A DNA stretch of 64,000 nt from an uncultured Planctomycetia bacterium (GTDB lineage Bacteria > Omnitrophota > Gorgyraeia > 1-14-0-20-64-10), in assembly GCA_964373715.1 (NCBI GenBank), contig CAYJVR010000004.1:25255-89254 (forward strand), written 5' to 3'. The notes under the pieces were generated by a model that saw only the letters and a list, made by a program, of their open reading frames with translations, made no database searches and had not been told where the DNA came from. The position numbers and the translations under genes were made by a program. This document shows positions 7,212 to 58,165 of the stretch, piece after piece (positions within the stretch are counted from its first letter, which is position 1; every line of letters begins with the position of its first letter).

Positions 7212-7418
7212 GTCATTGCGAGGAGGCCCAAAGGGCCGACGCGGCAATCTCATGCAAAATTTAATTACGGTTAGCCAGTTCGCGTGTTTGCCGGTTTGCC
7301 AGTTAACTCGAAAACTGGCTAACCCGCTAACCGGCCAACGCTCTGTTTCAAAATGAGCTGGCGCTCGTTGCTGAAGCTCCTCGCAATGACGATTTTTCCC
7401 TGTCATTACGAGGAGGCC
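7212..7418. repeat. MITE-like composite: 12-15 bp terminal inverted repeats (gtcattgcgagg / cctcgcaatgac) enclosing a dispersed-repeat copy, plus a third direct copy
   Basis: gtcattgcgaggaggcc at 7212..7228; exact reverse complement cctcgcaatgac at 7379..7390; direct copy gtcattacgaggaggcc at 7402..7418. Hairpin ggccc-aaa-gggcc at 7226..7238. Confidence 0.45.
7268..7348. repeat. dispersed intergenic repeat, copy A (GTTAGC/GTTTGC/GTTAAC word-rich element)
   Basis: cggttagccagtt...aacccgctaaccggccaacgctctgttt. Shares blocks and the 3' end (cccgctaaccgg...ccaacg-tct-tt) with 56910..57011, and in inverted orientation with 58070..58165. Confidence 0.5.
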
Positions 7419-7451
7419 AAAACTGTTTAACCAGAAATCTTTGTTTCATAC

Positions 7452-8978
7452 CTATACCCGCGTGGTTCTGTCCAAACTCCGGTACTGGACCGCCTCCGCC
7501 ACGTGTTCCGGGCCAATCTCCTGCGAGCCGGCCAAGTCGGCGATCGTGCGGGATATCTTCAGTACCTTGTCGTAGGCCCGGGCGGAAAGCCGGATGACCT
7601 GGATCGCGCGGCGGATGAGCTCCTTGCCGTCCGGATCCAGGCGGCAGTAACGTCTCGTCTGTTTGTGGTTCATCCGGGCGTTGCAGAAGAGGGGCCCCTC
7701 CTGTTTGAACCGCTCCCTCTGCCGCGCGCGGGCCTGCTCAATCCTGGCCCGGATGGCGCTGGAGGCCTCCCCCTGCTCCTCGGAGGTCAGCTCCGACATC
7801 GTCAAGGCCGGCACCTCGACATGGAGGTCAATCCGGTCCAGGATCGGCCCGGACACCTTGGCCCGGTATTTCTGGATCTGCGCCGGCATGCAGACGCAGG
7901 CACGTGCGGCATCCCCCAAGAAACCGCAGGGACACGGATTCATCGAGGCGACAAGCACAAACTGGGCCGGGAAGGTGAGTGTCCCCTGCGCGCGGGTGAT
8001 CGTGACAAACCCCTCTTCAAGCGGCTGTCTTAAAGACTCCAGAGAAGAGCGGCTGAATTCCGGCAATTCGTCCAGGAAAAGGACGCCGTGGTGGGCCAAA
8101 GAGATCTCCCCCGGTTTCGGGTTGGACCCTCCCCCCACGAGCCCGACGTCGGAAACGGTGTGGTGGGGAGACCGGAAAGGCCTGCGGTTAAGCAGGGGCC
8201 GCTCAGGGGAAAGCAGCCCCATCACGCTGTAGATCTGGGCCGTCTGGAGGGACTCTTGGAGGGAAAGCGGCGGCATGATGGTCGGGATTCTCCGGGCAAG
8301 CATCGTTTTGCCCGCGCCGGGCGGCCCAAGCAGAAGCAGGTTGTGCCCCCCGGCAGCGGCCACCTCAACAGCCCTTCTGGCTAGAGGCTGTCCTTTAATA
8401 TCGGAGAAATCCGCCCCGTCCTCCTCCGGCTCGTCGGAAAGCAGAAAGGGTGCCCCCTGCAATGCCATAATCTTCTCCTGCCCTCGGAGAAAAGCGATCG
8501 CCTGATGGAGGTGCTCCAGAGGATAAACAGTCGCCGAAGAGACCATGGCCGCTTCCGGCGCGTTGGCGGCCGGCACAAGAAACCTCCTGTTTTTCAAACC
8601 GAGTGTTATAGGAAGGATCCCGGGCACCGGCCTGATCGTTCCATCCAGCGCCAGTTCCCCTACAATCACCGTGCCGTCAAGGGCCGCCTGGTCCAACTGG
8701 TTCGAAGCGGCTAAAAGCCCCAAAGCAATCGGCAGATCGAAGGCGGAACCTTCCTTCTTCACATCGGCCGGAGCCAAATTAACGGTGATCCGGCTCTGCG
8801 GCCAGGCATACTGGGTATTTTTAATGGCCGAGCGGATCCTCTCTTTGGATTCCTTGACGGTGGCGTCCGGAAGCCCGACGATCGAAACGGAGGGTAAGCC
8901 GTCGCTCACATCCACCTCCACCGTCACCGGGACAGCGGAGAGTCCGACCACCGCGGCGGAATGCACTTTCGCAAGCAT
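7452..8978 (-). CDS. comM: YifB/ComM family Mg-chelatase-like AAA+ ATPase
   Basis: 508 aa. N-terminal Lon-like domain (MLAKVHSAAVVGLSAVPVTVEVDVSDGLPSVSIVGLPD), Walker A LLLGPPGAGKTMLARR, C-terminal Mg-chelatase region. Confidence 0.85.
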   Translation of the reverse strand: MLAKVHSAAVVGLSAVPVTVEVDVSDGLPSVSIVGLPDATVKESKERIRSAIKNTQYAWPQSRITVNLAPADVKKEGSAFDLPIALGLLAASNQLDQAALDGTVIVGELALDGTIRPVPGILPITLGLKNRRFLVPAANAPEAAMVSSATVYPLEHLHQAIAFLRGQEKIMALQGAPFLLSDEPEEDGADFSDIKGQPLARRAVEVAAAGGHNLLLLGPPGAGKTMLARRIPTIMPPLSLQESLQTAQIYSVMGLLSPERPLLNRRPFRSPHHTVSDVGLVGGGSNPKPGEISLAHHGVLFLDELPEFSRSSLESLRQPLEEGFVTITRAQGTLTFPAQFVLVASMNPCPCGFLGDAARACVCMPAQIQKYRAKVSGPILDRIDLHVEVPALTMSELTSEEQGEASSAIRARIEQARARQRERFKQEGPLFCNARMNHKQTRRYCRLDPDGKELIRRAIQVIRLSARAYDKVLKISRTIADLAGSQEIGPEHVAEAVQYRSLDRTTRV

Positions 8979-8986
8979 GCCGCCAC

Positions 8987-9526
8987 CTACTCCGGATGAA
9001 ACCCGATTCGCCGGCGCGGCCGCGTCGGCGGCGTCATCAGCTGCCGGATCGCATCAAAAACTATTTTGAATCGAGCGTCGTATTTCTGCTCCAAGGCCTC
9101 TAGCCTTCGGGCTAAATCTTTGTGAGCAGTAAGTATCTCTCGAAGCTTCACGAAGGCACGCATGATTGCGATGTTAACCAACACCGCCCGTTTGCTGTGG
9201 AGCACGCTGGAAAGCATGGCTATTCCCTCTTGGGTAAAGACGTAGGGGAGATGCCCTCCCAGGTGCTTCCTGGAAGGTATCGCATTTTGCGATACCACAA
9301 TTTCCACTTCGTTCTCCGTAAGCTGAAACATAAAATCTGCGGGGAACCGTTCGATGTTCCTTTTCACCTGCTCCCTCAATCGGATCGCTTTAACTCCGTA
9401 AAGCTCCGCCAGGTCGGAATCCAGCATTACCTTATGCCCCCGAATAAAGAGGATGCGGCACTGCACACGCTCCACTGCGGGATTCTTGTGACGAGGTCTG
9501 GTAGTCATTCGGCAGTTAGAATACAC
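8987..9526 (-). CDS. ORF6N (KilA-N-like) domain DNA-binding protein
   Basis: IRGHKVMLDSDLAELYGVKAIRLREQVKRNIERFPADFMFQLTENE is the classic ORF6N signature. The alternative start MTTRPRHK at 9508 is possible. Confidence 0.7.
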   Translation of the reverse strand: MYSNCRMTTRPRHKNPAVERVQCRILFIRGHKVMLDSDLAELYGVKAIRLREQVKRNIERFPADFMFQLTENEVEIVVSQNAIPSRKHLGGHLPYVFTQEGIAMLSSVLHSKRAVLVNIAIMRAFVKLREILTAHKDLARRLEALEQKYDARFKIVFDAIRQLMTPPTRPRRRIGFHPE

Positions 9527-9618
9527 AATCAGATTAAATAAATCAATAATTTATTTGTATATTATGCAATATACATAGAAAATAGAAGCGGGCTTCTTTC
9601 CTCGGAAATCCGTTTGTT

Positions 9619-12600
9619 TTACGCGAAGATGGCGAAGTAATCCTCGCCCTCGATCGTCACCCGCTCGATCGTTCCTCTTGTCAGATCGAGAATGAGGTTA
9701 ACGAGGGCGTCGGGCCGGGCCAGAAACGCCGCCAGCGCGGCCCGGTCAATAAGGTGATAAGTGCTTGGCGACAGGAACAGGGCGACCGGGTGGTTTTCGG
9801 GCAGGCGCACCCCCTGCCCGAAATCAGGATTGAGCGCTATCACCACCTGCTTCCCATCGGCAAAATCATCGGTGGCCTCCTCGAGGAGCGCATTGGCCTC
9901 ATCCGTGTTCTGCTCTGAAACAGCCAGCGTACGGCCGATTGGCCACCCTTCCGGCAAAATCGCCATTGCACCGGAAACGACCGACAAATGGGCGTAAAGA
10001 TCCACGGAGCCAGGCCTCAGTTGGGCGGGAACCGTCTTTGCGGGAACCAAAATCGCCTGCGTGTACCCTTCGGCCTGGGCCGCCGCGGCCAATTCCACGC
10101 CTCTCCTGCCCAGCTCTTCCAGCGTCAAAACCCGGACCCACGGCTCCTCCAGACCCCCGGTAAGGCCGGTAATCAATCCGGCCACAATCGGCAGTATCTG
10201 TTCGAGCCGGGCCGGAGCCGCCTGTTCGGTGGCAATCTGCAGATGCCCTTCTCCTGTAACACGGAACCGGACCCGCGCAAAAACCTGGACATCCGGAGCC
10301 ATGGCGATATTGTGATAAAACGGTGACCATTCCTGCGCAGGCGGCAAAACACGGATGAGCTCTGCCAGCGCCGGGCGGTTCCACCGTCCCGACTCCAGCA
10401 CGGCAACCAAATGACCCTCCATGAATCTCCTCTGCGGCTTGGCGATAATGAACCCTCCCTCATCCACCACCTGGGCCGGTTGGGACCGGTTCCAGCTCTC
10501 AGGCCTTACCATGTCGCTGCGCCCAAGCCGGATGCCCCGCGTCGGATCCATGAATAGGGGAACTACGGACTGTTCATTCCCGTTGAGAAATTCCATGGTG
10601 TTCGGGGCATCGGCCCGAATGACCGAATCCTCCACCGTCTCCATAATTTCCTGGAACAGAGGCTGACCGGACTGCTCAAGCGGGGTCGGAGTCCGGGAGT
10701 TCTGGAATTCATCCTGCTCTCCGCCAAAGGCCGCGAAATTTTCCTGGGGGGCAAAACGGATATTGGCCGCAACCGCGCCGAGCATCTGAACCGTCTCCGC
10801 TTCCGCCTGGTCCCTCAGGCTGGGACGCACGCGGACCCCGGTCCGGCCGGCAATCTCCGCGCGTATGGCTTCGCCCGCCGTTCCGGAGCGAAGCCTTTCC
10901 CGGCGGGCTTCGAGCCGGCCTATCAGCGCGCCGGCTCGCTGGCCGACCAGCGGCAAATCATTCTGTTCCGTAAATTCCAAAAGAGGCAGAGCCACACCGA
11001 TGGAATCCATATCGTCGGCTAAAAGTTCCAGTCCCCGCACCGCCGCCTCCCGGACACTCACAGACGGTTCACCCCATACGTCGTCCGCGGTCCGGCCGGA
11101 AGGGTTCTGCCTCGTCATCAGCTCTCCGAAAAGATTTATAATCTGATTCCTCAGCGCCCTGTTCTCCCCGTAATCCAGCCTCGCCAGTCCCTCCACGGCC
11201 CGGGCGCGCGCGTTCAGCGGGCCCCTTTCTTCCAGCGTCAGCCAGCGTACAAAATAAGCCGCCAGCTCGCCCGCCGCGGCCGGAAACTTTTCCACGTAGA
11301 CCTCCGGGTTCGAGTAGGGCCACCGGCTGATCTCCACCGCGTCCCTGTCGGCCAAACGGCGGATAACAATATCGTTGAACGAAGCGAAATGCCCCGGCCC
11401 GTCACGAAGAGAGGTCTCCCGGCCGAGCACCTGCCCGTTTTCGGAAGAAACCTCCTCTACGAGGACCTCCCACCCCCTTTCAAGAGAGGGCACAGAAAGA
11501 CGGACGAACGTGCCGGGATTTCCCCGGTTGACAATCCGCAGCCCCATTCCCCATCTGGCCAAAAGCTCGAGAGGAACCACCACCGGGTTATCTGCCCGGA
11601 AAAAGAGTCTCTGCTCGAATTGGTCCCTCAGCTGCAGAGAAACGACATCCTTCGTGCTGCGGACCATCTCCTCGTAGAGGGTTTCTTCCAACCCGGCCGG
11701 GGGAATATCCAGCATGCTGATTACATTCGTGGCCCGCCCGACGGCCAGCTTGCCACCGTTCGGGCTGAAGGCCAAACTGAGGATCGAGTGGGGTCCCTTC
11801 ACCGTCCCCCGCGCTTCGCCCGCGTAGACATCCCAGAGATTCAAAACCCCGTCTCTTCCTCCGGTCGCCAGGAGATTCCCATCCGGGTTAAAAGCCAAAG
11901 CCAGGATCTCCTTGCCCGCCTTGTGCTGAAACTCATTCACAAAGAGGCCGGCCCTGTTCCACACACGGACAAATCCTTTGCTGTCGCCCGAGACAACCAG
12001 GGATCCGTCCGGGCTGAAGAGAACCACTGTGACGCCCCCTGCGTGTCCCCTTAAAACACGGAATCTTGTCGCCTCTTCGGAGAACCGATCGCTGACATCC
12101 CGCAGTTCGACGGTCCCCCTGCTTGTCCCGATCAAAGCGATGTTCCCGTCCGGGCTGTAGGCAACGCTTAATGGGAGGCCCTCCTCCGGCTTAAAACGTT
12201 TCACGATCCCCTCCCTGCCGGCATAATCAGCAGCCGCTTCCGGAGCCAGATTTTGGATGAGGGCCTCTTTCCTCAACCCGCCGACCAAAAGGAATTTCCG
12301 GTCCGGAGAAAAAGCGGTGCTGCCCGGATAGGGGGGGGTCTCCGGAAAGAGCGACGACCTGAATTCGATCCGCCCGATCGGATAGGCGTGGAACCAATCA
12401 TGCCGGACAGCGCTGGTGGAGTTGACCGACAGAACGGCCGACCCGGTGGAGGAAAATGCGACCTTTAAAACTCCTGCTTGCTGAATCAGTTTGCCATGGC
12501 CGCCCCTCGTCTCCCAGCTCCAAATCCGGACGGTTCCGTCATCGCTTGCGGAAACAAGCGTCTTACTCTTCGGCGCGGCGTTGAACGCGAGGCTTGTGAC

Positions 12601-13956: not shown

Positions 13957-14048
13957 TTTAATGCCTACACCATGAAGGTTACCTGAGACCGTGGAGGAAA
14001 AGAAGAGGGGCTAGGCTTGTATCACGTTAACCACCAAATAGTTAGTGG

Positions 14049-17000
14049 TTATGCAAAGATAGCAAAATAATCTTCCCCGTCGATCGTCACCCGTTCGATC
14101 GTCCCGCGAGTCAAATCGAGGATCAGATTTCTTAAAATCTGCGGTTGAGAAAGGAACGCTGCTAAAATCGTCCGGTCAATAAGATGATACGTCTTTTCTG
14201 ACAGGAGGAGCGCGACGGGATGGTTCTGCGGCAGCTGCAGGCCGGACTTTAAATCGGGGTCCAGCGCGATGACAACCTGCCGGCCCCTGGTAAATTCGTC
14301 GGTGGCTTTTCGCAGCAGATCATTTCCGGCAGAGGGATCGTTCTCCGGAATGGCAAGGATCTGTCCGATCCCCCACCCATCGGGCAGAATAGCCATCGCG
14401 GCGGAAGAAACGGAAGGCTGCGCGTAAAGATCCAATGTGGCCGATTCCATCCTGCTTAATACAGCTCCCACCGGAACCAAAACAGCTTGCGTGTATCCTT
14501 GAGCCCCAGCCTCTGCGGCCAATTCCACACCTTTCCTGCCCATCTTTTCAAGCGTCCAAACCCGGGCAGTGCTCTTTTCTTCCAAACCGGCTTTCGAAAA
14601 GGCATCCCGGATCTGAGCCGCTACCTCTTGGATGGACCCCCCCTGGACGGAAACCGGCAAACGAAAGATTATTTCGGAACCCTGCGCGCGCTCAACCGCT
14701 TGAATCGCGGGAGCTTCCCCCGCAGCGGTGTACAGATAACGGATCCTCCCCCCATCCGGCCCGGCCGTTTCCACCGTCAAGGAGCCGCCCGGGATATCCA
14801 TCACCGCTAGGTAGCTGGCGGAGAGGCCAATGCCCGCCTCCCCTTCGTCAAAACCGGTTTTTCGGGTCGATCCCGCCACTCGGACTGCGGTGTCGACCGG
14901 GATTTTCCACGGACCCGGGTTTTCATCCCGATAAGTCACGACGAGGGAACCGGTGGTTTTCCCCTCAGCGGAGACCACTCGCTCGATAGAAAACCGGAGC
15001 GCAGCCGACGGATGGCTTTCTTCCGGCACGTGTTCCAAAAGATTCTTCCCGAGCTCCTGAACCAAAAACATCAGCAGGGTTCCGCTCGTCCGGTTCTGCT
15101 CGTCATACGGCAGTCCCAGCACGGCAGCCGTCTCTGCCGCCAGCCGATTGACCGCCCGTTGGAAGAGTCCCGGATCGCTCAACTGGGCCGTCACTTCCCC
15201 AAGAACGGCGGTCTCCGGCTTCTCTTCCAAACCGGCGGGAATTCCCTTTAACCTGGAGAGGCTGAAGCTCGGTGTATCCGGTCCCCATCCGATAAGAATC
15301 ATTTTCCCTTCTTCAGTCCACCGGATGTTCAGGTCCAAAGTTTCCATGCGCACGAACTCGGAGAAACGGGGCGGCGGCCTCTGGGAACCGACGATCGTGA
15401 TCTTCTGGCCGGGCGCTGCGGAAAATCCTTCGGTCCGGACTTTGAAAAACTGTTCGTCCGGGACAACGATCTGGTCTTTGCCCGAAGGGATGACAAAAAA
15501 CCGTTGTTTGCCCGCCGCGGCGTTCACCTCGAGCAGGAACGTTGATCCGTCCCCCGCCGCCGGAACGGAAACGGGCGACACCTGCTGTTTGGAATCGGCG
15601 ATCTCCAGCGCCAGCACCTCGAACGAAACCCTCTCCATCTCCGCCAAACGGGCCACCCGGAAACGGGGCGTATCCGGACCCCAGGCGAACACCAGGCCGT
15701 TGTCCGGATCGTACCGGAAATTCATGTCGAGGGCTTCGATCCGGGCGGTTTTCGCGCCGACAGGCGGAGGCCGCCGGGGAAAACGGACCGGCATGACCCC
15801 GCCCCCTTCGAACCGGAAACCCTCCCGGGAAACTGTGATGTCGTCCTCGTCCAAAAGAACCGTATTGAGCCGGTCGTTGGCGCCGGTGAAGAAATATTTT
15901 TTGCCGGCCGGCGTATCGACCTCCACGAGAAAGATGTCGCCGGGCCTGACGTGGGGAACGATGACCGGCGAGATCTTCTGCGTCGAATCGGCCAATTCCA
16001 CGCCGAAAATCTCAAAAACTTTTTCATCGGGCTTTTCCGGCCTGCCGATCCCGAGTTCCGCCCGCACTTGCCGAACGAGACTGTCCCGCCGATAACGAAG
16101 CTCGAACGCTTGGCTCAAGACGGCAAGCGCCTCGGCCCCCCGCGCGTCGCTTATGGAAAGCAGAGCGTCGGCCCGCAGGGTCTCCAAGAGGATCATTTGT
16201 TGATAAGCCTCGTACCGGACCAGCCGGTCGGGGTTTTGCAAGGCGGTCTCGAAGGCCTTCTTCAATTCCTCATAAGAGCGCATGGCGGCTTCGTAAACCG
16301 GATCCGGAGACGAAGCCCGGGAGGGGTCGGGCTTGGGGGCGTCGCCGATCCGGACGCTCAGCCGGCGGGCGATCTGCCCTTCGGTAAAGTAGGCAAAACC
16401 GGCGGTTTTCTGAACGATCTGGGCCGAACCCGCCGGTGTCTCCGGAAGCAGACCCTGCCAATAAAGCTGCGCCCGTTCTTCCATAGCGCGGGTCAGATCG
16501 TTATAAAGGAACATCTCCGGCAAAGATCCGGCTTTCCGGATCTCTTCGATGGCGCGCTGGATCCGAATCTCCTTTATGCCCAGCAGAAAGACCGGCCCGC
16601 GCCGTTCCCAGCCGGGAGCCCATTGACCCGAGGGATGGATCTCCGCTTCGATCTGCTTTAAAACCACATCGATCAGGATCGACGGAGATTCTTCCCAGAC
16701 GGAAAGGAACGCCCGGATTGACTGGCCGGTCTCATCGCCGCAAATCCCTTCCAAAACAGCCGCCCGGGCTTGCCGAAGAGGAGGCGTATCGGCCAGGAAA
16801 ATGCCCCGGAGAAACCCCTGGACCTCCGGAGTATCGGAGAGCCAGAGCAGCGAACGGGTCAGAGAAACCCTCTGCTGGGCCGAGAAAGCCGGTGCCTGTT
16901 CAACAAGAAGATTCATCCTCTGGGCCGAATTGTTTTCCGGATCGAACAAACGGTTCAGGAGATTCCGCACCGCCGGGTCAATCTCCTCCGTACCTGCGCC

Positions 17001-21146: not shown

Positions 21147-21216
21147 CTTTTTTAACGACAGTGGTTACGAAAGGTTAACTGGATATAAGTTTACCCTGCA
21201 TAATGGTTTATTTCAA

Positions 21217-21248: not shown

Positions 21249-21316
21249 TCGTCGCAAAGAGGCTTGCAGCCGTCGGTTGCGTGTGCGACACTAATAAAAT
21301 TATGTAGGTTGCTCTC

Positions 21317-22120: not shown

Positions 22121-22170
22121 CAATAGCCCGGTGAATCTCAGTAAGCAAGCCCAAATGGTATAATCGTTTA

Positions 22171-28996: not shown

Positions 28997-29056
28997 GACC
29001 GCCGAGGGACCGCGAAGCGGTCCGAGGAAGTAGTTGAGCGTTCCTTACGCTCAGAC
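28997..29056. repeat. about 60-nt structured stem-loop element, copy 1 (abuts kamA stop codon)
   Basis: gaccgccgagg-GGACCGC-gaa-GCGGTCC-g-AGGAA-gtagttgagcg-TTCCT-tacgctcagac: two hairpins. About 85% identical to 33457..33517. Confidence 0.5.
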
Positions 29057-33447: not shown

Positions 33448-34540
33448 ATACTCGGTGACCGTCGAGGGGCCGCGGAGCGGCCCGAGGAAATGGTTGGGCG
33501 TTCCTTACGCCCAGACCATGAAGTCGAAGCAGATTCTCGCGCCGACCGCGGCACAATAACCTGATTCACCCCTTCTCTGCCCAGTTTCCTCGAATAGTGG
33601 AAGAGGTACTGCTGGGCCCAGCCGCAGTAAGGACCGAAATGCTTCCGGGCGAACTCGCGTATCTTTCTATCCGGCACCTTCCTGTTCCGGAAATACCAGC
33701 GCCGCATGCACCGCGCGATCCAGACATCCACCGGGAAGGCCGATTCCCGTCCGTAGCCGAAGAGCATCACGCATTCCGCCACCTTCTGGCCGATCCCGGG
33801 GATCTCCATCAGCGCTTCCCGCAGCGCGTCATCTTCCAGTCCCTTTAACTTTTCCGGATCGATCCGGCCTGAGGCATGCATCCGGGCCGCCGCCTTCAGG
33901 TAGGGCGCCCTGTAGCCAAGCCCGCACGCCCGCAGCTCATTCTCGGATACACCAGCCAATCTCTCAGCCGTCGGAAAGCGAGGAGTGGTGTTGGGCGGGA
34001 GATCGCGGGTGACGCCTGCGGAGATGCCCTTTCTAGCCGCGCGCAGTTCCGCAGACCCTTCTCTCTTGTTTAGTGGGGTCGAGGACTGTCTGAGCACGGC
34101 GAAAGGGCGCTCTGCAAGCGGCAGGACCCGCGACCGGTTCTCCATAACGCTCGGCGAGGCAGTTCAGCATGCCGGTCAAGCGAACGATGTTGTTGTAGGC
34201 CGAGAGGATGAAGCTGGCCGTGCACTCCCACGACTCCTGCCGGATCAGCCGAAGCCCCCAGTGGGAGCGGCAGGCTTCATGGATGATCGGATCGACATCT
34301 ATTTGAGCGGCGAGCGCCGGCAGATCGACGTCGAGAGAAAAAAAGCGGCTGATCGCCTCTGGGGACGCCCCATTGAAAAAGATCTGCCCGCCGCTCTGGG
34401 AAATCCGCACGCGGGAACCGGTGAGCCAGCCCTCGAACCATCCGGGCTGGGATTGAGACCACCTGAAGACCTGGCCGGAAAACAAAGTCGCCTGCAGGTC
34501 AAAATCCCTGCAGGCGATTGTTTGAAATTCCGTTCGAACG
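33444..34540 (-). pseudogene. ogg: 8-oxoguanine DNA glycosylase (OGG family, HhH-GPD) with an apparent frameshift between the N-terminal and HhH-GPD domains
   Basis: OGG N-terminal domain (ATLFSGQVFRWSQ...LAERYGEPV) is in one frame, ending at the stop at 34033. The HhH-GPD part (FPTAERLAGVSENELRACGLGYRAPY...LMEIPGIGQKVAECVMLFGYG...FPVDVW) is in another frame, 33444..34145. No ATG exists for the N-terminal part downstream of the dcd stop; a TTG start is possible. The start coordinate is approximate. Confidence 0.5.
33457..33517. repeat. about 60-nt structured stem-loop element, copy 2 (between convergent gpmA and ogg stops)
   Basis: gaccgtcgagg-GGGCCGC-gga-GCGGCCC-g-AGGAA-atggttgggcg-TTCCT-tacgcccagac. 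Stem 1 differs from copy 1 by two compensatory changes (A to G and T to C) that preserve pairing. Confidence 0.5.
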
Positions 34541-43619: not shown

Positions 43620-43631
43620 CCCACCACCTAC

Positions 43632-48667: not shown

Positions 48668-48685
48668 ATTCAGCGGCGGTAAAAC

Positions 48686-50125: not shown

Positions 50126-50958
50126 CAGCCTTTGACTCCCGTATAAAGGACCACGATGTTCCCGTTGAACGATTCCGCGCGCGCCTGGGCAAAACCGGCC
50201 CTCTTAAGCCGTTCAAGGACACCCTCCGGCGGCATAAAGCGGAGGATCGAACGCCGAAGATAGGTGAACGGCCAGAAACTGCCGGTCGTCAGGAACCCGG
50301 CCGACGGCAGGCCGGCGGTCAGCCATAGCCAATGCCCTATCCTCAGAAAAAGATTTTTCGGACGGCCGAACTCAAGAAGGCCGATCCGTCCTCCCGGCTT
50401 CAAAACGCGGTGCAGTTCCAGGAAAGTCTGCTCCAGGTCGGTCACGTTGCGCAGAGCAAAGCCGATCGTCGCCGCGTCGAAACTGCCGTCTTCAAACGGA
50501 AGGGCCTCCGCCCTCCCCTGAATAAGCCGGACATGCCACCGGGCAGCCGGGACCCGCTCAAATTTCCGCCCGGCATACTTAAGCATATCGCCCGAAACGT
50601 CGCAGGCCGCCACCAGCCCCAATGGAGCAAGCGTCTCGGCCTGAAGGCAGGCAAGGTCCCCGGTTCCGCTGGCCAGGTCGAGCACCCGCATGCTCGGCTT
50701 CAGCTGCAGGCTCCGGACTGCGCTGCGCCGCCATCCCTGGTCCATCCCGAAACTGGAAAGTTTGTTGAACAGGTCGTACTGGGGGGAGATTTTGTCGAAC
50801 AATCCCCGGATGAAGCTGTCCTTATTTCTTCCGGCGGCCGGGCTGTTTGGTGAGGAGGAGGACCCCTTTGGCGTCATCAAAGCAGACCTGATAGCGTCTG
50901 AAGAAATCCCTTCGTCCAAGGAGGTTAAACGCGACATCGAAATCCCGAGGTACTCCAA
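50125..50958 (-). CDS. ubiE: demethylmenaquinone / ubiquinone C-methyltransferase
   Basis: FDKISPQYDLFNKLSSFGMDQGWRR is the UbiE/MenG signature. SAM motif VLDLASGTGD. The start is probably internal (MTPKG...). TGATG overlap with ubiD. Confidence 0.8.
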   Translation of the reverse strand: MEYLGISMSRLTSLDEGISSDAIRSALMTPKGSSSSPNSPAAGRNKDSFIRGLFDKISPQYDLFNKLSSFGMDQGWRRSAVRSLQLKPSMRVLDLASGTGDLACLQAETLAPLGLVAACDVSGDMLKYAGRKFERVPAARWHVRLIQGRAEALPFEDGSFDAATIGFALRNVTDLEQTFLELHRVLKPGGRIGLLEFGRPKNLFLRIGHWLWLTAGLPSAGFLTTGSFWPFTYLRRSILRFMPPEGVLERLKRAGFAQARAESFNGNIVVLYTGVKG

Positions 50959-51235
50959 AGGTGACCGAAAGCCGTTCTTTGCCTATTTTCACCCAGAGCC
51001 TGTGCAGGGTGATCCTCTGGGTCCTTCCGCCGCTGGTGGTGACAGGCAGCCCGCGCGCCTTGATCTTCAAGAGGCCGAGGCGCCGGGCATCAACGACGGT
51101 TAAAACGCTGTAGGCGGCGCCTGAGTCGACGTAGGCCCATACCCTCTTCCACCGGTGGCCGCCCAGCACCTTGATGGAGATAATGGGAGCTGCGCCTCCC
51201 ATGTAATGCCTGTAGGGTAACCGGATTATGGGCAA
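50822..51235 (-). CDS. retropepsin-like (clan AA) aspartic protease domain protein
   Basis: 137 aa with YVDSGAAYSVL (D-S/T-G-A catalytic motif). Overlaps the 5' region of the ubiE ORF in another frame. Confidence 0.45.
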   Translation of the reverse strand: MPIIRLPYRHYMGGAAPIISIKVLGGHRWKRVWAYVDSGAAYSVLTVVDARRLGLLKIKARGLPVTTSGGRTQRITLHRLWVKIGKERLSVTFGVPRDFDVAFNLLGRRDFFRRYQVCFDDAKGVLLLTKQPGRRKK

Positions 51236-51287
51236 TTTTGTTCTAAAACTCTAACCGGCTCACGATACCACAGCCCGGAAAGCCGGG

Positions 51288-53405
51288 TCAATGGCCCGTG
51301 GTTTTGCCGATCGCGGCGAGGGTCTCCCGGCAGAGAAACCGGATCTCCTCTTGATTGATTGCCAACGGCGGAATAATCACGATCACATTGCCCAGAGGAC
51401 GCAGGAGGATCCCGCGGGTCCGCAGGACTTGGCAAACCCGGATGCTAGCCTTCTTCTCAAGCGGGTACGGGGCCGCCGTTTTCTTGTCGGCCACCAGCTC
51501 AATGCCGGCCATTAATCCCCTCTGCCGGACCTCGCCGACGTGCGGATGGCTCTCAAATGCTTTCAACTCCCACGCCAGCGCCCGAATCTTTGGCTGGAGG
51601 TTCTTCAGCACTTTCTCCCGCCTGAAGATCTTCAGGCTCTCCAGCGCCACAGCGCAGGCCAGCGGATTTCCAGTATAGCTGTGGCCGTGGAAAAAGGTCC
51701 GGGAGGAGGCGTAAGGCCCGAGGAACCCTTTGTAAACTTTTTCGGTTGTGAGCGTCGCCGCCAGCGGAAGATATCCACCGCTAATCCCCTTCGCCACGCA
51801 CAGAAAATCAGGCCGGACATTCTCCTGTTCGCAGGCTAACATCGTACCGGTCCGGCCGAAGCCGACCGCCACTTCGTCTGCAATCAGAAAGATGCCGTAT
51901 TTCCGGCAGAGCCTCCCGACCTCCTTAAGCCACCCCTTGGGCTGAACGATCATGCCGGAGGCCCCCTGCACCAACGGCTCCACCACGAGGCCGGCCGCCT
52001 CCCTATGGTGCTTTCTCATCACCTTCTCAAGCGCCCTCAATGAATCAGCGCCGCTGACTCCCCGATACGGGTACGGGGCCGGCACCTTGAACCCTTTAAA
52101 AAGCAGAGGCCCGTAAACCTGATGGAAAAGATCGATCCCTCCAACCGAGACCGAACCAACTGTATCTCCGTGATAGGCGTTGACGAAATGGATGAACTTC
52201 TTCCGGCGGGGCTGTCCGTTCTGCTGGCAGTATTGGAAGGCCATTTTCAGCGCGATCTCCACCGCAGTGGAGCCGCTGTCGGAATAAAAAACTCGCTTTA
52301 AGTTTTGAGGAGCAACTTTGAGCAGCTCGTCAGCCAGTTCAATGGAAGGAATATTGCCGGCCCCCAGAAGTGTGGAATGAGCAACCTTCTCAAGCTGTTC
52401 ACGTAGGGCTCTGTCTAAATCCGGATGCCGGTGCCCGTGCAGGTTCACCCAGAGGGAGGACACTCCGTCCAGATATTTATTTCCCCGCGTATCGCGCAGA
52501 TAAACCCCTTGCGCCGATTCCACAATAAGAGGTTCACCCTGTTCCCACTCCTGCATCTGGGTAAAAGGGTGCCAGACCGTTTTCCGGTCAATCCGGGAGA
52601 GGCGCTTCGCCTCCGGCAACGGCAGGCGTTCCTCTTTCTTTTTCAACCGGCTGAGGATCTCCTCTACCTCGATAAAGGAGGCCGCCGTCGAAGGGGACGG
52701 TTTCGCCATTTGGGGAACAATCCCCAGGATCGGGATATCCCCGAGCCGGCGGATCACGTCGGGATTGGTCCTCTCCGAAAGGGACGGCGTGGCCGACCGG
52801 CCGTTTAATACAACACCGATGACGTTCAATCCCTCGGAACGGGCCGCCTTCAGCGTCAGTAAAGTATGGTTGATCGTCCCCAGCCCCGCCCGGGCGACGA
52901 TGAGGATCGGCAGGTCGAGACGCCTCGCCAAATCCGCCACTGTGCTCTTTTTATCGAGCGGAACGAGAAGCCCGCCGATCCCTTCCACGAGAACGATCTC
53001 ATGTTTTCGGGCAAGCATATCGAACGATTGTTTAATTCGATCCAGCGAGATTTCTTTGATTGCCCTCACCCTGTTCCCTCCCCCGTCTCGGGAGAGGGTG
53101 GGGGTGAGGGTAAGGGCAACAAGCGGGGCGACCGGCGGCTCGAACCGGTACGGAGAGACCAGTTCGTGCGGATCAGCAACGCCGGAGGAAGCAGTTAAAA
53201 CGCGGGCGTCTTCCGAGACCAGCAATCCGTTTTCCTTAAGACAGCCTGTCGCCACCGGCTTCATCACACCGACATCCATTCCTCGGCGCCGGAAGGCGGC
53301 GGCAAGCGCCGCCGTGACGAACGTCTTGCCTACCTCGGTATCGGTCCCTGTGATGAAAAGACCGGGGCACGGAACAGGGGGCGCGGGGCGAGAAAAGCGA
53401 GGCAT
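51288..53405 (-). CDS. bioDA: BioD-BioA fusion: dethiobiotin synthetase plus adenosylmethionine-8-amino-7-oxononanoate aminotransferase
   Basis: N-terminal ITGTDTEVGKTFVTAAL (BioD P-loop). C-terminal class-III aminotransferase with PLP lysine region FLIADEVAVGFGRTGTMLACEQENVRPDFLCVAKGISGGYLP. Confidence 0.85.
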   Translation of the reverse strand: MPRFSRPAPPVPCPGLFITGTDTEVGKTFVTAALAAAFRRRGMDVGVMKPVATGCLKENGLLVSEDARVLTASSGVADPHELVSPYRFEPPVAPLVALTLTPTLSRDGGGNRVRAIKEISLDRIKQSFDMLARKHEIVLVEGIGGLLVPLDKKSTVADLARRLDLPILIVARAGLGTINHTLLTLKAARSEGLNVIGVVLNGRSATPSLSERTNPDVIRRLGDIPILGIVPQMAKPSPSTAASFIEVEEILSRLKKKEERLPLPEAKRLSRIDRKTVWHPFTQMQEWEQGEPLIVESAQGVYLRDTRGNKYLDGVSSLWVNLHGHRHPDLDRALREQLEKVAHSTLLGAGNIPSIELADELLKVAPQNLKRVFYSDSGSTAVEIALKMAFQYCQQNGQPRRKKFIHFVNAYHGDTVGSVSVGGIDLFHQVYGPLLFKGFKVPAPYPYRGVSGADSLRALEKVMRKHHREAAGLVVEPLVQGASGMIVQPKGWLKEVGRLCRKYGIFLIADEVAVGFGRTGTMLACEQENVRPDFLCVAKGISGGYLPLAATLTTEKVYKGFLGPYASSRTFFHGHSYTGNPLACAVALESLKIFRREKVLKNLQPKIRALAWELKAFESHPHVGEVRQRGLMAGIELVADKKTAAPYPLEKKASIRVCQVLRTRGILLRPLGNVIVIIPPLAINQEEIRFLCRETLAAIGKTTGH

Positions 53406-53413
53406 GCGGCCGG

Positions 53414-54835
53414 CTAAGCGTTTGCCGTTCTTAAAGGGGGTTTGCCTGAAACGGTGAATTCCGTCGGCGGAACAACACCGATGAAATCGTCGCTGGAAGC
53501 GCCCCGCATAATGGCCGAGGCGATAACTCCGGTGGCGGCAGTGGTCACAGAGTTCAAAGTAGAAAAGATCGCCGGGATATTCGCGCTCGCGTAGGGCGCG
53601 GCGGAAGGCCCGTAGAGCCTCTGGAGCGTCACCGTATGCCCGTACAGGTCATCCGCCCTGGCCTGCAAAGAGGCCCGCTCCGCCGGATCGGAAAAGGACG
53701 CGGCCATCTCTCTCATGAAAAGGACGAGGCCGTAAGCGGCCTCCAGTTGAAAGATCAACTCCAGCTTGCCTCTGTGCTGCGGCGGGACATCCACAAACGG
53801 GTCCTGGAAAGTGGCCTGGAAATAATAAACCCCCTCGATCTTGCCGTCCGGCGAGAAACCGTTTGGGGCGTCCTCTATATGGGCAAACGGCGTGCGGGTG
53901 AGAAATTTCTCTTGAACGAACTTCAGCGACGAGCGGACCATGTCTGTGTCGTAAGGAACGTAAATGTGGGCCGCCCAGGTGTTGTTATCCACCGCGATGC
54001 TGGGATTCCCGTCCGTGCCCAAATAGAACTTCCCTCGGCCGTCCATCGCCGAAACGAAATGGTCCTTCTGCCAGAAAGCCCGCTGTATCCCCCGCATCAG
54101 CAAATCATGGCGGTGGATCAGCTCCTCCATGAATTTCGTCTCCTGCGGGGTGAAACGCTTGGCAGCGCGGAAAGCGAGCCTTAAAGTCCCGGCGATGTCA
54201 GCGTTATGCTCCAAGATGATGTGTTCGTATTGCTCGTTGGCCCGGTCTTGATAAACCTTATAGCCCATCTGGTTGCTGCCCCGGCCCAAATCGTCCGGGT
54301 TATGCAGACCGGCGCGGAACAAACCGCAGCGGGGATCGCCGGGATCGGTGACCTGCTGGCTGAAAAGGAAGGTCTGAACAGCCCGGTTTATCCAGGAGAG
54401 GGCTGAGGTGTCGCCTGAGGCCAAAATGAACGAGTAGATCGCGTTCAGGCACCAGGAGTTGGCGCCCGTCGGGCCGCGGGGGTCAATGAAAGAATCTTCC
54501 CTGGTGTTATAGGAGAAATGCCAAAGACCTTTATAGCCCTTCGATTCCTCCTGAAGGGCCAGCTGCATCGCCCGCCCCACCTGATAGCCGGCCTGGCGGA
54601 TCCGGCCGGCTTTAATATCGGCATAGATGCTTAAAGCGACGTCGTAGATCCAGAGCCGACCGAACCGGGCGACAAACTTGGAGTCCGGATGATTCGGGTC
54701 GTCTTTATAACTGTACCTCAAACCCTGGAAATCAAAACCGACCTGGTCATTCACGCTCGGCTGTAAAATTCGCTGCCGGTCGAGAAAAACCAGGCCTTCC
54801 TTTAAGTGCATGGCGCTGAGTTCAGCGAGTGTCAT
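53414..54835 (-). CDS. hypothetical protein, possibly (alpha/alpha)6 six-hairpin glycosidase-like, embedded in bio operon
   Basis: 473 aa, no confident motif. Translationally coupled (ATGA) to the bioF stop and 9 nt from the bioDA start. Confidence 0.45.
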   Translation of the reverse strand: MTLAELSAMHLKEGLVFLDRQRILQPSVNDQVGFDFQGLRYSYKDDPNHPDSKFVARFGRLWIYDVALSIYADIKAGRIRQAGYQVGRAMQLALQEESKGYKGLWHFSYNTREDSFIDPRGPTGANSWCLNAIYSFILASGDTSALSWINRAVQTFLFSQQVTDPGDPRCGLFRAGLHNPDDLGRGSNQMGYKVYQDRANEQYEHIILEHNADIAGTLRLAFRAAKRFTPQETKFMEELIHRHDLLMRGIQRAFWQKDHFVSAMDGRGKFYLGTDGNPSIAVDNNTWAAHIYVPYDTDMVRSSLKFVQEKFLTRTPFAHIEDAPNGFSPDGKIEGVYYFQATFQDPFVDVPPQHRGKLELIFQLEAAYGLVLFMREMAASFSDPAERASLQARADDLYGHTVTLQRLYGPSAAPYASANIPAIFSTLNSVTTAATGVIASAIMRGASSDDFIGVVPPTEFTVSGKPPLRTANA

Positions 54836-56073
54836 GTGTGCGGCAACCCTACGTTTTGAGAACCCGCGGCCGGAGCCTTTTCAAGACAGACTCTTATTGT
54901 CTCATCTTTAGACAGCTTTTTAAAGATATCTAAAGCTACCTTAATATCCGCCTCTTCATGAAGCGCCGTCAGACTCGTCCGTATGCGGCACGCACCGGCC
55001 GGCACCGTCGGAGGCCGGATGCCTGGCGCATAGACGCCGGCCTCTAAAAGGAGGCGGGCCATCCGCATCGTCCCGTTATTATCCCCGGTCCACACGGGAA
55101 CGATCTGGCTCTCGGCCGACATCAACCGGTAGCCGGCCTCCCGAAGGCCCGCCACCCAGATCCGGACGTTCCTAAAAAGGTTCTCGCGCAGAGAAGGCTC
55201 CTGCTCCAGAACAGCCAGCCCTTCCAGAGCGGCGGCAAGAGATGCTGGCGAGGAAGCGGTCGTGTAAATGAAGGAGCGGGCCTTGTTTTTCAGGTAATCG
55301 ATCACCACCTTCGGCCCGGCTACAAAACCCCCCACAGACCCCAGGGCCTTGGACAATGTCCCCATCTGGAGGATCTCCTCGGTGGAGATCCCAAAATGCT
55401 CCAGAGATCCCCTTCCGGCGGCGCCCAAAACCCCTGTGCCGTGCGCATCATCCACCAAAAGCCAGGCCCCGGTTCGGCGCGCCACCTCAGCAATATTGGG
55501 CAAAGGAGCGATATCTCCATCCATGGAGAAAACCCCTTCGGTCACGACAAGCACACGCCGGTAGCGCCCGATCCTGCTCTTCAGCGCTTCGCCGAGCCGC
55601 TCCGCGTCGAGATGGGGATAGACGCGGAAAGAGGCCCCGCTCAACCGGCAGGCATCCACGAGGGAGGCGTGGTTCAGATGGTCGCCGATCACAAGGTCTC
55701 CGGGACCAACCAAAGCGGTGATGATCCCGAGGTTCGCCATGTAGCCGGTCGGGAAAACCAGCGCCGCCTCCGCTTGCTTAAAAGCGGCGAGCTTTTCCTC
55801 CAACCGTGCGTGGAGAGAGAGTGTTCCCCCAATTAAACGAGCGGAACCGGATCCGGCGCCGAATTCATCGCACCCCTTTTTCGCAGCGGCAATGACCCGC
55901 GGGTGCAGGTGCAGGCCGAGATAGCCGTTGGAAGCCATATGGATGAGCCAGCGGCCGTCCACGCGAATCCGCCCGCCCCGGACCTCCTCGACCTCACTGC
56001 AGGAGCGGTAAAGGTTTTGTTCCCGCAAATTATCTAATTCTTCTTGTAGCACGCTGAATGGCATCATCTTCAA
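54832..56073 (-). CDS. bioF: 8-amino-7-oxononanoate synthase (class II aminotransferase)
   Basis: 413 aa. PLP-lysine region GTLSKALGSVGGFVAG. Resembles BioF/KBL. Confidence 0.8.
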   Translation of the reverse strand: MKMMPFSVLQEELDNLREQNLYRSCSEVEEVRGGRIRVDGRWLIHMASNGYLGLHLHPRVIAAAKKGCDEFGAGSGSARLIGGTLSLHARLEEKLAAFKQAEAALVFPTGYMANLGIITALVGPGDLVIGDHLNHASLVDACRLSGASFRVYPHLDAERLGEALKSRIGRYRRVLVVTEGVFSMDGDIAPLPNIAEVARRTGAWLLVDDAHGTGVLGAAGRGSLEHFGISTEEILQMGTLSKALGSVGGFVAGPKVVIDYLKNKARSFIYTTASSPASLAAALEGLAVLEQEPSLRENLFRNVRIWVAGLREAGYRLMSAESQIVPVWTGDNNGTMRMARLLLEAGVYAPGIRPPTVPAGACRIRTSLTALHEEADIKVALDIFKKLSKDETIRVCLEKAPAAGSQNVGLPHT

Positions 56074-56077
56074 CCCT

Positions 56078-56160
56078 GGGGCATGAGGCTAGAAAAGAGG
56101 CGCGGGGCATGAGACGGGGGAAAAGTCTTTGAAATTCTTTTCCCCCATGCCCCATGTCTC
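56078..56160. promoter_or_regulatory. nested inverted-repeat stem-loop between fabG-like and bioF
   Basis: ggggcatgag ... ggggcatgag-ac-GGGGGAAAAG-tctttgaaatt-CTTTTCCCCC-atgcccc: a 10-bp perfect inner stem with an extended outer stem. No T-run follows. Confidence 0.35.
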
Positions 56161-56171
56161 TTGCCCCGGTT

Positions 56172-56897
56172 TTAAATACGGCTGTCTAACTGAAATACCT
56201 GGCCGGTCACGTTTGTGCACAGATCGGAAAGCAGCCAAACGATGAACGAGGAGGCCGTTTCAACCGAAGAGATCGTCCCGAGAGCCGATTCGCTTTTTGC
56301 CCGCTCCCACGCCTCTTGTGGAATTTTCCGGGTCATCCGGGAATCCACGAAGCCGGGGCAAACAACGTTGGCCGTCACGCCGAAGCGGCCCGCCTCTTTC
56401 GCAACCGACTTCATGTAGCCGATGACGCCGGCCTTCGCGGCGCTGTAATTGGGCTGGCCCAACCGGCCGATAACCCCGGAGAGGGACCCAATCGCGATGA
56501 GTTTCCCTCGCCCTTTTTCCCGCATCACAGGCAGGACCGCCTGCGTCACGGCAAACAGGCTGTTCAGATGGACCGCGATCACCTCATCCCATTCCTGGTC
56601 GGTGATTTTAGCCGCCGTCCGGTCCCGCGTGTTCCCCGCCGAATAAACCAGGCCGTCCAGATGGCCGGCCTGCGCGAGAACGGCCGAGACCAGGTTTCTC
56701 GCCTGCGCCCGGTCGGACAAATCGCTTTTGACCATGAAGACCCCCTGCGACTGAAGCTGCTGGGCCTCCTCCTCAGACTGGAAATAGGAACCGGCCACCC
56801 AGGCCCCGGAATGCAGAGCCTCTTCGGCGACAGCTCGGCCGACGGCGCCGCTGGCGCCGGTAACAAGGATTTTCTTCCCTTCGAGAGAGATATTCAT
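56172..56897 (-). CDS. short-chain dehydrogenase/reductase, FabG-like 3-oxoacyl-ACP reductase
   Basis: TGASGAVG Rossmann motif. Catalytic YSAAK (Y-x3-K). Confidence 0.8.
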   Translation of the reverse strand: MNISLEGKKILVTGASGAVGRAVAEEALHSGAWVAGSYFQSEEEAQQLQSQGVFMVKSDLSDRAQARNLVSAVLAQAGHLDGLVYSAGNTRDRTAAKITDQEWDEVIAVHLNSLFAVTQAVLPVMREKGRGKLIAIGSLSGVIGRLGQPNYSAAKAGVIGYMKSVAKEAGRFGVTANVVCPGFVDSRMTRKIPQEAWERAKSESALGTISSVETASSFIVWLLSDLCTNVTGQVFQLDSRI

Positions 56898-56909
56898 GGG
56901 GAGTAAAAA

Positions 56910-57011
56910 CCGTTAGCCAGTTAACCGGTTTGTCCGTTAAACCCGCTAACTCGCAAACAGGCAAACCCGCTAACCGGATAACCCGCTAACTCGCCAACCG
57001 GCCAACGATCT
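56910..57011. repeat. dispersed intergenic repeat, copy B (abuts bioB stop)
   Basis: ccgttagccagttaaccggtttgtccgttaaacccgctaactcgcaaacaggcaaacccgctaaccgg...ccaacgatcttt. Confidence 0.5.
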
Positions 57012-57986
57012 TTAAACGGCGAAACCTAAATCCTGGAGCATCCGCACATCATTCGCCGGCTGCCGACCGGATGTCGTGAGGTACCCGCCGATGATCAGAG
57101 AATTGGCGCCCGCCAAAAAGGCCAGCGACTGGAAATCCCGCAGATTGACCTCCCGGCCTCCGCCCAACTCTAGTTTCGATTTTGGAAGAATAAAACGGAA
57201 TACGGCAATCGTCTTGATCACCTCAAGAGGATCGGGCGGTGTGGTGCCCGCGAGAGGCGTCCCTGGCCGCGGGTTAAGGACGTTGATCGGGGCGCACTCC
57301 ACCTCGAACTCGGCCAGCTCGAAAGCAAGCCGGATACGTTCTTCGCGGGACTCCCCAAGCCCGAGTATCCCGCCGCTGCAGATCTCCAGCCCCTGTTTCT
57401 TGAGCTGTTTGAGCGTGTTCAGCCGGTCCTGGTAGGTGTGAGTGGTGCAGATGTTCGGGAAATTCGATTCGGCGGTCTCGAGGTTATGGTTGTAGCGGGT
57501 CATGCCGGCCGCCTTCAACTGCGAGAGCTGTTCGTCGGTGACGAACCCGAGCGAGCACTCCGGGACCAGACCCGTCTCCTCCTTCACGCGCCGCACCGCT
57601 TCGCAGAGGACCGGCAGGTCCTTGTCGGAGAGGCCACGGGTCGCAGTGACGATGCAGAACCTCTTGGCGCCGAACTCCTTGGCCTGCTTGGCCCGGGCGA
57701 CAATCTGGTCCGGGTCCATCAGCGGGTAGGTGGTAACGCCGGTATTGTGGTGGCCCGACTGGGAGCAGAAGCCGCAGTTTTCGGCGCACTGCCCCGATTT
57801 CGCGTTGACGAGCGCGCAGAGGTCCACGTCGTTGCCTGTGAACTTCTCCCGGATGCGGGTCGCGTGGGAAGCGAGCTCCAAGACTTCAGGCCAGGTGTCG
57901 AACTCGATGAATCTCTTGGCCTCTTCAAAGGTGATTTCCCCGCCTTCTAAAACACGATCCGCCGCCTGTTTGATCTCGCTGGACAT
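57012..57986 (-). CDS. bioB: biotin synthase
   Basis: CAENCGFCSQS radical-SAM motif. The start is taken at MSSEIKQ with AAGGAG 6 nt upstream. The listed ORF extends to 58043. Confidence 0.9.
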   Translation of the reverse strand: MSSEIKQAADRVLEGGEITFEEAKRFIEFDTWPEVLELASHATRIREKFTGNDVDLCALVNAKSGQCAENCGFCSQSGHHNTGVTTYPLMDPDQIVARAKQAKEFGAKRFCIVTATRGLSDKDLPVLCEAVRRVKEETGLVPECSLGFVTDEQLSQLKAAGMTRYNHNLETAESNFPNICTTHTYQDRLNTLKQLKKQGLEICSGGILGLGESREERIRLAFELAEFEVECAPINVLNPRPGTPLAGTTPPDPLEVIKTIAVFRFILPKSKLELGGGREVNLRDFQSLAFLAGANSLIIGGYLTTSGRQPANDVRMLQDLGFAV

Positions 57987-58037
57987 GCGATTCTCCTTAA
58001 GGTTTACCCACTCTTTTATCAGGCCGGCGGGGTGAAA

Positions 58038-58067
58038 TGTCAACCGATTTCATCGATTAGGTTGACC
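58038..58067. promoter_or_regulatory. BirA-type operator (TGTCAACC-N14-GGTTGACC) upstream of bioB
   Basis: 7-bp perfect inverted arms with a 14-nt spacer, about 50 nt upstream of the bioB start. Matches the TGTnAACC-N14-GGTTnACA bioO architecture. Confidence 0.5.
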
Positions 58068-58069
58068 AT

Positions 58070-58165
58070 GGAAAATCGTTGACGGGTTAGCGAGTTTTCC
58101 AGTTTGCGAGTTGGTGGGTTTAACAGGCAAACAGACTAACCGACTAACTGGCAAACGATTTACCG
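58070..58165. repeat. dispersed intergenic repeat, copy C (inverted relative to copy B; overlaps stop of 58160..59584)
   Basis: The reverse complement reads tcgtttgccagttagtcggttagtctgtttgcctgttaaacccaccaactcgcaaactgg...cgctaacccgtcaacgattttcc, aligning block-by-block with copy B. Confidence 0.5.

Follow-up and report, generated by a model that had tools for sequence, protein, structure and literature searches.

Three copies of a palindromic repeat, designated A, B, and C, occur in a 64,000-nt stretch of a Candidatus Omnitrophota metagenome-assembled genome (MAG; contig CAYJVR010000004.1, positions 25,255 to 89,254), and the whole of this 64-kb stretch is referred to below as the window. Each copy is a long imperfect palindrome of two unit arrays, and copies B and C, which flank the biotin gene bioB, behave as insertions when their junctions are compared with those of relatives. 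With moderate confidence, we read the three copies as members of a lineage-specific, nonautonomous palindromic repeat that was copied into short spacers and that resembles repetitive extragenic palindromic (REP) sequences, the REP doublets forming hairpins (REPINs), or miniature inverted-repeat transposable elements (MITEs). The homologs of BioB, ComM, and a short-chain dehydrogenase/reductase (SDR) of the window are labeled Candidatus Omnitrophica. The window is a housekeeping region with menaquinone, heme, cytochrome bc, purH, and biotin genes, and the genes flanking A, B, and C are all on the minus strand.

Reading the sequence directly revealed all three copies and refined their limits to 7262..7348 (copy A, minus strand), 56906..57011 (copy B, minus strand), and 58073..58159 (copy C, plus strand). 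Copy A is supported by direct reading, by a two-unit and a two-ended pattern, by folding, and by nhmmer, and copies B and C are supported in the same ways and additionally by the junction comparison with relatives. The elements are noncoding, about 79 to 105 nt long, and end in inverted copies of one unit. Each consists of a run of 8-nt GTT-n-R-C-n-n units on the plus strand followed by like units on the minus strand, the arms being tandem arrays of four to nine modules of 8 bp each. Copy A has five GTTnRCnn units on the plus strand (7270-7307) and five on the minus strand (7302-7339), with the arms meeting at a palindromic GTTAAC (7302-7307). Copy B has four units on the plus strand and nine on the minus strand, including an internal unit duplication, and copy C has about five on each. 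The GTT-type array lies 5' of the AAC-type array in all three copies, whichever strand is read. Tandem Repeats Finder reported a period of 8 at A, B, and C, and 8-nt register shifts inside the copies were also reported by a repeat finder. Most units in the window are GTTAGC or GTTTGC. With G-T wobble allowed, the hexamer GTT[A/G][A/G]C at the core of the unit is a palindrome, and GTTAAC is a perfect one. A logo of 23 window units and 77 units from the metagenome elements described below reads G-T-T-n-G/A-C-C/G-n, in which positions 4 and 8 are free. Position 7 was C in 68 of the 77 metagenome units, though the detector did not impose that position.

A preliminary description of this DNA had proposed a dispersed intergenic repeat family with a conserved order of blocks, and the alignment of the copies bears this out. 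A 28-nt core, AACTCGNAAACNGGNNAACNCGCTAACC, is matched by all three copies, with 5 of the 28 positions variable as read off the sequences. In addition, the copies have both ends in common (CGTTGRCC and GGCWAACG) and carry nonidentical modules in the same order. On these sequence features, the three copies are of common origin. Pairwise identities were 76% to 80% in matching orientation versus 65% to 74% in reversed orientation, and the self-complementarity of the copies was 66% to 72%. The two-unit pattern GTTWRCNNGTTWRC, with one mismatch allowed, gave 25 matches in the window versus 1.6 expected from shuffles, and 24 of the 25 fell inside A, B, or C. The two-ended pattern CGTTGRCSGGTT-N45-75-AACTGGCWAAC matched the window only at A (minus), B (minus), and C (plus), with 0.00 matches expected. 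Copies B and C therefore lie in opposite orientation, as had been described, and the repeat finder reported an inverted match of 71 nt between them with 79% complementarity. An nhmmer profile built from the three copies matched only A, B, and C in the 64 kb, and no additional copy was found in 3.7 kb of the same genome outside the window, leaving the count at three in the window. Copies B and C are identical across independent assemblies from five sequencing runs, which indicates that they are not assembly artifacts.

The order of features at the biotin locus is 474-aa gene, copy C, BirA operator, bioB, copy B, SDR gene, 98-nt hairpin, bioF, 473-aa gene, and bioD-bioA. The bioB gene (57012..57986, minus strand) encodes radical SAM and BATS domains and is bracketed by B and C; the FabG-like SDR gene of the bio operon is at 56172..56897 on the minus strand. 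Copy B fills the bioB-SDR spacer: it adjoins the bioB stop codon (57012-57014) and ends 8 nt before the SDR start codon, an ATG at 56895-56897. Copy C fills the gap between the TAA stop codon of the 474-aa open reading frame (ORF) (58160-58162) and the BirA operator, and its A-rich edge takes in that stop codon. These junctions were compared against contigs of Omnitrophota relatives with the same order of the 474-aa gene, bioB, the SDR gene, and bioF. The bioB-SDR spacer is 7 to 8 nt long in the relatives L130, L132, L133, and L136 versus 114 nt here; it consists of 54 nt of unrelated sequence in L158 and of 78 nt with a palindrome of another kind in L134. Upstream of bioB, the spacer measures 85 nt in L132 and L133, where it holds the operator only, versus 173 nt here, and the excess equals the length of copy C. 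Two tandem copies of a different 60-nt repeat occupy the C site in the closest relative, GCA_023248015.1 (L126 9036-9160). Presence/absence polymorphism at orthologous sites is thus seen for the element, as it is for MITEs. The region after comM is rearranged in the relatives, and hence no empty site was available for copy A. The repeat profile gave no nhmmer match with an E value of <0.1 in 152 kb of relatives, where about seven would be expected at the density of the window. The family is thus absent from the relatives examined, which supports its being lineage specific.

The preliminary description had also suggested that the inverted B/C pair brackets bioB and its operator much as a composite or MITE-like insertion would. 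The insertion part of this suggestion holds, as judged from the spacer lengths in relatives, whereas the idea of a composite unit carrying bioB is not supported. The pair does bracket bioB and the operator in inverted orientation, as the ends of a composite transposon that had brought them in would, but bioB, the operator, and the flanking genes occur in the same order in all element-free relatives examined. The proposed synteny check therefore returns bioB as ancestral and the elements as inserted. The composite transposon was rejected on synteny, and we consider it exceedingly improbable. Judged from gene order, bioB and its operator are ancestral at the locus, and their same position in repeat-free relatives indicates that B and C were inserted separately around an ancestral gene. 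The different repeats and palindromes found at the bio junctions of the relatives indicate that these spacers were repeatedly colonized by different small palindromes. The 60-nt repeat of GCA_023248015.1, which has two small stem-loops, also occurs in the window at 28997-29056 and 33457-33516, and the spacers of a related ENA contig are, by their lengths only, consistent with one copy of it on each flank of bioB.

A further, unrelated hairpin (56074-56171; -47.4 kcal/mol; z score, -3.9) fills the 98-nt SDR-bioF spacer and has no second copy in the window. At this junction the relatives have an overlap to a 6-nt spacer (L130, L132, L135, and L136) or a spacer of 44 nt (L134). Together with B and C, this hairpin places hairpin insertions at three consecutive bio operon junctions of this genome. 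The SDR start codon is ATG here (56895-56897) and in L158 and L134, whose spacers are long as well. Of the relatives compared, those in which the SDR gene follows bioB after 7 to 8 nt (L130, L132, and L136) have TTG or GTG. The ATG start may compensate for lost translational coupling. The 473-aa gene (53414-54835, minus strand) lies inside the bio operon in all Omnitrophota relatives examined, and the 474-aa gene (58160-59584, minus strand) keeps its position upstream of bioB in most of them with variation in size, L130 having an extra gene between it and bioB. Neither protein had a Pfam, NCBIfam, or significant PDB match. The two genes, together with the FabG-like SDR gene, may be part of a pimelate or biotin-precursor route that has not been described.

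The BirA-type operator (58038..58068, minus strand), read as TGGTCAACC-N13-CGGTTGACA, is a distinct conserved site beside copy C, separate from the repeat and kept upstream of bioB in repeat-free relatives. It has the form GTCAAC-N16-GTTGAC here and TTGTCAAC-N16-GTTGACAA in most relatives, and it is conserved in all relatives compared. The left half-site (58061-58068) is TGGTCAAC here, TTGTCAAC in L126, L134, and L135/L136, TCGTCAAC in L132, and TTGTTAAC in L130. A bioO operator is one inverted repeat with GTnAAC-type half-sites about 16 bp apart in a bio promoter, and the repeats are no such operator: the true one is a separate site, kept in relatives without the arrays. The link between the repeat and BirA that the preliminary description raised is not supported, with this conserved operator set apart from the repeat and copy A beside comM/yifB, at a distance from all biotin genes. 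The repeat as a set of multiplied BirA boxes was rejected for the same reasons.

The predicted folds of all copies are more stable than those of shuffled controls, with z scores of -2.9 to -4.6. On the transcribed strand, the predicted folds had energies of -52.4 kcal/mol for copy B (z score, -4.4), -35.6 kcal/mol for copy A (z score, -4.0), and -30.2 kcal/mol for copy C (z score, -2.9), and the opposite strand of copy C gave -37.6 kcal/mol (z score, -4.6). Copies B and C have an A-run at one edge and a T-run at the other, and on the transcribed strand the hairpin of B leads into UUUUU and that of C into AUUUU; both stems are long, branched, and wobble rich. They do not correspond to the canonical intrinsic terminator, a compact G+C-rich stem-loop with a U-tract, and a consensus terminator scan returned none at A, B, or C. 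In a search of Rfam, no family reached its gathering threshold, and the only matches, to microRNAs with E values of 0.1 to 4, are at chance level. In the folds of 16 elements, unit positions 1 to 3 were paired in 88% to 90% of the units and positions 4 and 8 in 59% to 66%, against a rough chance expectation of about 38% when uniform base use is assumed. Since positions 4 and 8 pair above chance, the arms are true inverted copies, yet conservation of the motif is tighter than that of the pairing. RNAalifold applied to ten members gave a consensus hairpin of 22 pairs, nearly all of them invariant, with a covariation term of +1.6 and a compensatory change in 1 of the 22 pairs. With the paired columns nearly invariant, the covariation test is uninformative, and there is no positive evidence for a selected RNA structure.

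Elements of similar build were found among other environmental bacteria. The two-ended pattern matched 17 loci in JGI metagenome contigs, 14 of which are hairpin arrays of GTTnGCCn units on contigs with G+C contents of 44% to 64%. These 14 elements sit in tight spacers, mostly between codirectional genes, and occur in both orientations relative to the genes. Two of the loci, L141 and L142, have a near-identical AT-rich, nonrepetitive loop in different flanks and gene contexts, which indicates that such elements were dispersed by copying in another organism. Another locus, L152, is syntenic with the named MAG L008, and both have an element at the orthologous site. The 28-nt core was found neither in the JGI metagenome contigs nor in viral contigs. 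In the named genome set, the profile gave, among the matches listed, weaker matches in KSB1, Desulfobacterales, Saprospiraceae, and Omnitrophota contigs. A broad four-unit pattern matched at least 120 loci of many phyla in genome contigs, mostly, among the matches listed, simple direct 8-mer arrays; among these listed loci, period 8 was no commoner in the flanks than period 7 or 9, and gene orientation was mixed. The broad-pattern loci thus form no single coherent class, the simple arrays having been selected by the pattern itself. For hairpin-type arrays, the GTT arm lay 5' of the AAC arm in 12 versus 2 clear cases among the genome matches listed (L006-L125) and in 19 versus 0 loci of viral contigs, as counted with patterns matched for information content. 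Of the 19 viral loci, however, 15 come from a single phage family, and related Bacteroidales account for many of the genome cases; the independent families thus number only about 10 versus 2, and the polarity bias is suggestive.

Two further groups of octamer arrays were noted in these searches. An array of three GTTGGCAA and two TTGCCAAC units is conserved in 15 phage-like contigs of IMG/VR (within L161-L177) with G+C contents of 59% to 66%. It is located upstream of a RuvC-like resolvase gene, and the annotated phages showed only this RuvC-like neighbor. In Bacteroidales (L009, L020, L025, L032, L048, L084, L113, L115, and L118), hairpins of GTTGACRA octamers were found, which in at least L025, L084, and L118 lie 10 to 25 nt upstream of start codons; they are often beside other octamer arrays (CTGCACTC and CTGAACTC) and had no Rfam match.

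Three other explanations of the repeat were weighed. The arrays may be double-stranded DNA sites of a protein that binds cooperatively along 8-bp repeats, with a regulatory or architectural role that is perhaps BirA related; the preliminary description had likewise raised a protein-binding array. The conservation pattern fits such a role: each unit keeps GTT and C-C/G but varies freely at positions 4 and 8, the pairing is less well kept than the motif, the head-to-head arrangement is strongly preferred, and the local BirA half-site GGTTGACA fits GTTnRC. An 8-bp periodicity is also a property of MetJ, ParG, and omega sites, with MetJ lining up on met boxes and ParG or omega on 7- to 8-bp repeats. 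However, the relatives run the same operon without arrays, copy A is not near a biotin gene, copy B lies inside the operon directly after a stop codon rather than in a promoter, the units are mostly GTTAGC or GTTTGC and not the GTTGAC of the operator, and no candidate binding protein was found in scans of the window ORFs. The common module order of the three copies, moreover, points to copying and not to the independent evolution of operators, and we regard this explanation as unlikely. No likelier, in our assessment, is that the copies are selected RNA elements, acting after genes as bidirectional intrinsic terminators or as hairpins that stabilize 3' ends. On the transcribed strand, each of the three copies comes after a stop codon, an A-run and a T-run border B and C, and the strongly folding hairpin of B and that of C run into U-rich stretches, but the terminator scan was negative at all three, and neither covariation nor Rfam lends support. 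In addition, the metagenome members lack consistent T-runs, as judged by eye, and elements are found in both orientations relative to genes. Copy B also separates bioB from the SDR gene, bioF, and bioDA, although bioB and the SDR gene are 7 to 8 nt apart in relatives. Since a promoter scan found no sigma-70-like promoter after B, a strong terminator at this site would cut off biotin synthesis, which makes such a role for B unlikely.

The remaining explanation is that the arrays are not copies of one element but expanded in situ as an 8-nt simple repeat slipped within a palindrome. Unit number differs between the copies, B has an internal duplication, the orthologous elements of L152 and L008 differ in module order, and bacterial spacers often hold tandem 8-mers of various kinds. 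Growth in place nevertheless leaves unexplained that a 28-nt core varying at five positions, both ends, and one order of nonidentical modules recur at three loci, and that L141 and L142 have a nonrepetitive loop in common in different gene contexts. Imperfect units are, moreover, poor substrates for slippage. We consider this origin quite improbable for A, B, and C.

REP sequences and REPINs are short, noncoding, extragenic elements of two-arm hairpin form that are mobilized by REP-associated tyrosine transposases (RAYTs) (PMC3337134). They occur in many dispersed copies per genome; here, three copies were found in 64 kb and none in a further 3.7 kb. The repeat is like them in lying in spacers, often after stop codons or inside operons, in being lineage specific and polymorphic between relatives, and in having two inverted arms that can form one long hairpin. 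It differs in that its arms are tandem arrays of 8-bp modules, whereas a REP arm is a single imperfect palindrome, and in that its ends are CGTTGRCC and GGCWAACG with no GTAG/GGAG head. No RAYT (Y1 transposase) gene was found among the scanned ORFs of the 64-kb window, and one may lie in another part of the genome. A literature search on repeat strings and octamer repeats returned nothing relevant besides this REPIN background. The repeat is also small and noncoding with terminal inverted repeats, as are bacterial MITEs. MITEs such as Correia, RUP, and Nezha are shorter than 300 bp, noncoding, and intergenic, with inverted ends and insertion polymorphism. Unlike in MITEs, no target-site duplication was detected, as judged at B and C, and the whole body of the repeat is an inverted repeat. 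We know of no parent insertion sequence for it.

Other known systems offer analogies. In eukaryotic Ac/Ds-type hAT elements, the subterminal repeats are many 6-bp transposase-binding motifs that extend over about 200 bp and face in opposite directions at the two ends. The arrangement of short motif arrays in opposite orientation at the ends is the same here, as an analogy only, and to our knowledge no bacterial example of such subterminal arrays has been described. The met boxes of MetJ and the sites of omega and ParG, which are ribbon-helix-helix proteins, are contiguous units of 7 to 8 bp, direct and inverted, that are read cooperatively in promoters or plasmid centromeres. The repeat likewise has contiguous units with a period of 8, which is an analogy and not a membership; in contrast to these sites, it occurs as dispersed insertions, A and B lie after stop codons, and no ribbon-helix-helix protein was found in the window. 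The short tandemly repeated repetitive (STRR) sequences of heterocystous cyanobacteria consist of 7-nt tandem units in direct arrays only and are intergenic in one lineage. They are similar to the repeat as short tandem units dispersed in the spacers of one lineage but lack its palindromic two-arm build. Integron attC sites, imperfect palindromes of 57 to 141 bp after ORFs with GTT...AAC-type boxes, were also compared. In attC, RYYYAAC is 5' and GTTRRRY is 3', whereas here the GTT type is 5' and the AAC type is 3' on both strands; attC was rejected on this opposite polarity and on the flanks, which are syntenic core housekeeping genes and not cassettes.

If A, B, and C are copies of a mobile palindromic repeat, as we favor, the modules would be the recognition sites of a trans-acting protein, a transposase or another nucleic-acid-binding protein, that mobilizes the hairpin, and only insertions into spacers would survive selection. 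The transcribed element would fold as an imperfect hairpin that may insulate or stabilize the end of the upstream transcript, as with C after the 474-aa gene and A after comM, and copy B, which splits the operon, would still have to allow transcription to read through. Several observations weigh against this reading. Only three copies were counted in the window and 3.7 kb of the genome. No target-site duplication was detected at B or C when filled and empty sites were compared, the flanks extending the palindrome instead, and scans of the ORFs in the 64-kb window found neither a transposase domain nor a RAYT gene. The copies are only 76% to 80% identical, so that either the insertions are old or the free positions turn over fast. 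The elements of L152 and L008 differ in module order and in the right arm, which indicates that modules also turn over in place. Finally, a compensatory change was seen in a single pair of the consensus hairpin, and conservation tracks the GTT/GCC motif and not the pairing, for which a plain hairpin parasite offers no account. That the Omnitrophota copies belong to a class of modular hairpin elements extending across phyla, with GTTnGCCn-type modules read by a new kind of transposase for nonautonomous elements or by a filament-forming nucleic-acid-binding factor, is a tentative extension to which we assign a low probability. Such a protein-read module class would explain both the stronger conservation of the motif than of the pairing and the nearly invariable position of the GTT arm 5' of the AAC arm.

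The spacer that holds copy A is 490 nt long and rich in repeats; comM/yifB (7452-8978) lies upstream of copy A and a 291-aa ORF (6088-6963) downstream. Around copy A are three copies of another repeat, GTCATTRCGAGGAGG (7212-7226, 7376-7390, and 7402-7416), of which those at 7376 and 7402 together make a 16-bp hairpin. Single matches to GTCATTRCGAGGAGG also occur in L135 and L139. In GCA_023248015.1 (L138 5966-6830), a gene with an ORF6N domain directly follows comM, overlapping its end, and is followed by a second stretch coding for a ComM C terminus, whereas in the window (7452-9526) the ORF6N gene is upstream of comM. This difference in position suggests that the ORF6N gene is mobile. Elsewhere in the window, a c-di-GMP-I riboswitch aptamer (Rfam RF01051) was found at 3460-3590 on the plus strand, with 49.1 bits versus a gathering score of 35. 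Two giant ORFs of 1,445 aa (WD40) and 2,365 aa (HATPase_c) have stretches of about 80% DNA identity in their last 500 nt or so (9619-10135 versus 14049-14565, at a constant offset of 4,430 nt).

The comparison with relatives settles the flanks of bioB as neither a mobile bioB cassette nor a set of extra BirA sites. In this genome, hairpins were inserted at three successive junctions of the bio operon and now separate genes that are 0 to 8 nt apart in relatives, which must alter expression of the operon. The modular build, the head-to-head polarity, and the conservation of the motif above that of the pairing point to a protein partner of the repeat. If our reading is correct, the repeat would represent a differently built family among the small palindromic repeats such as REPs, REPINs, and MITEs, in the Omnitrophota, a phylum with few cultured members.

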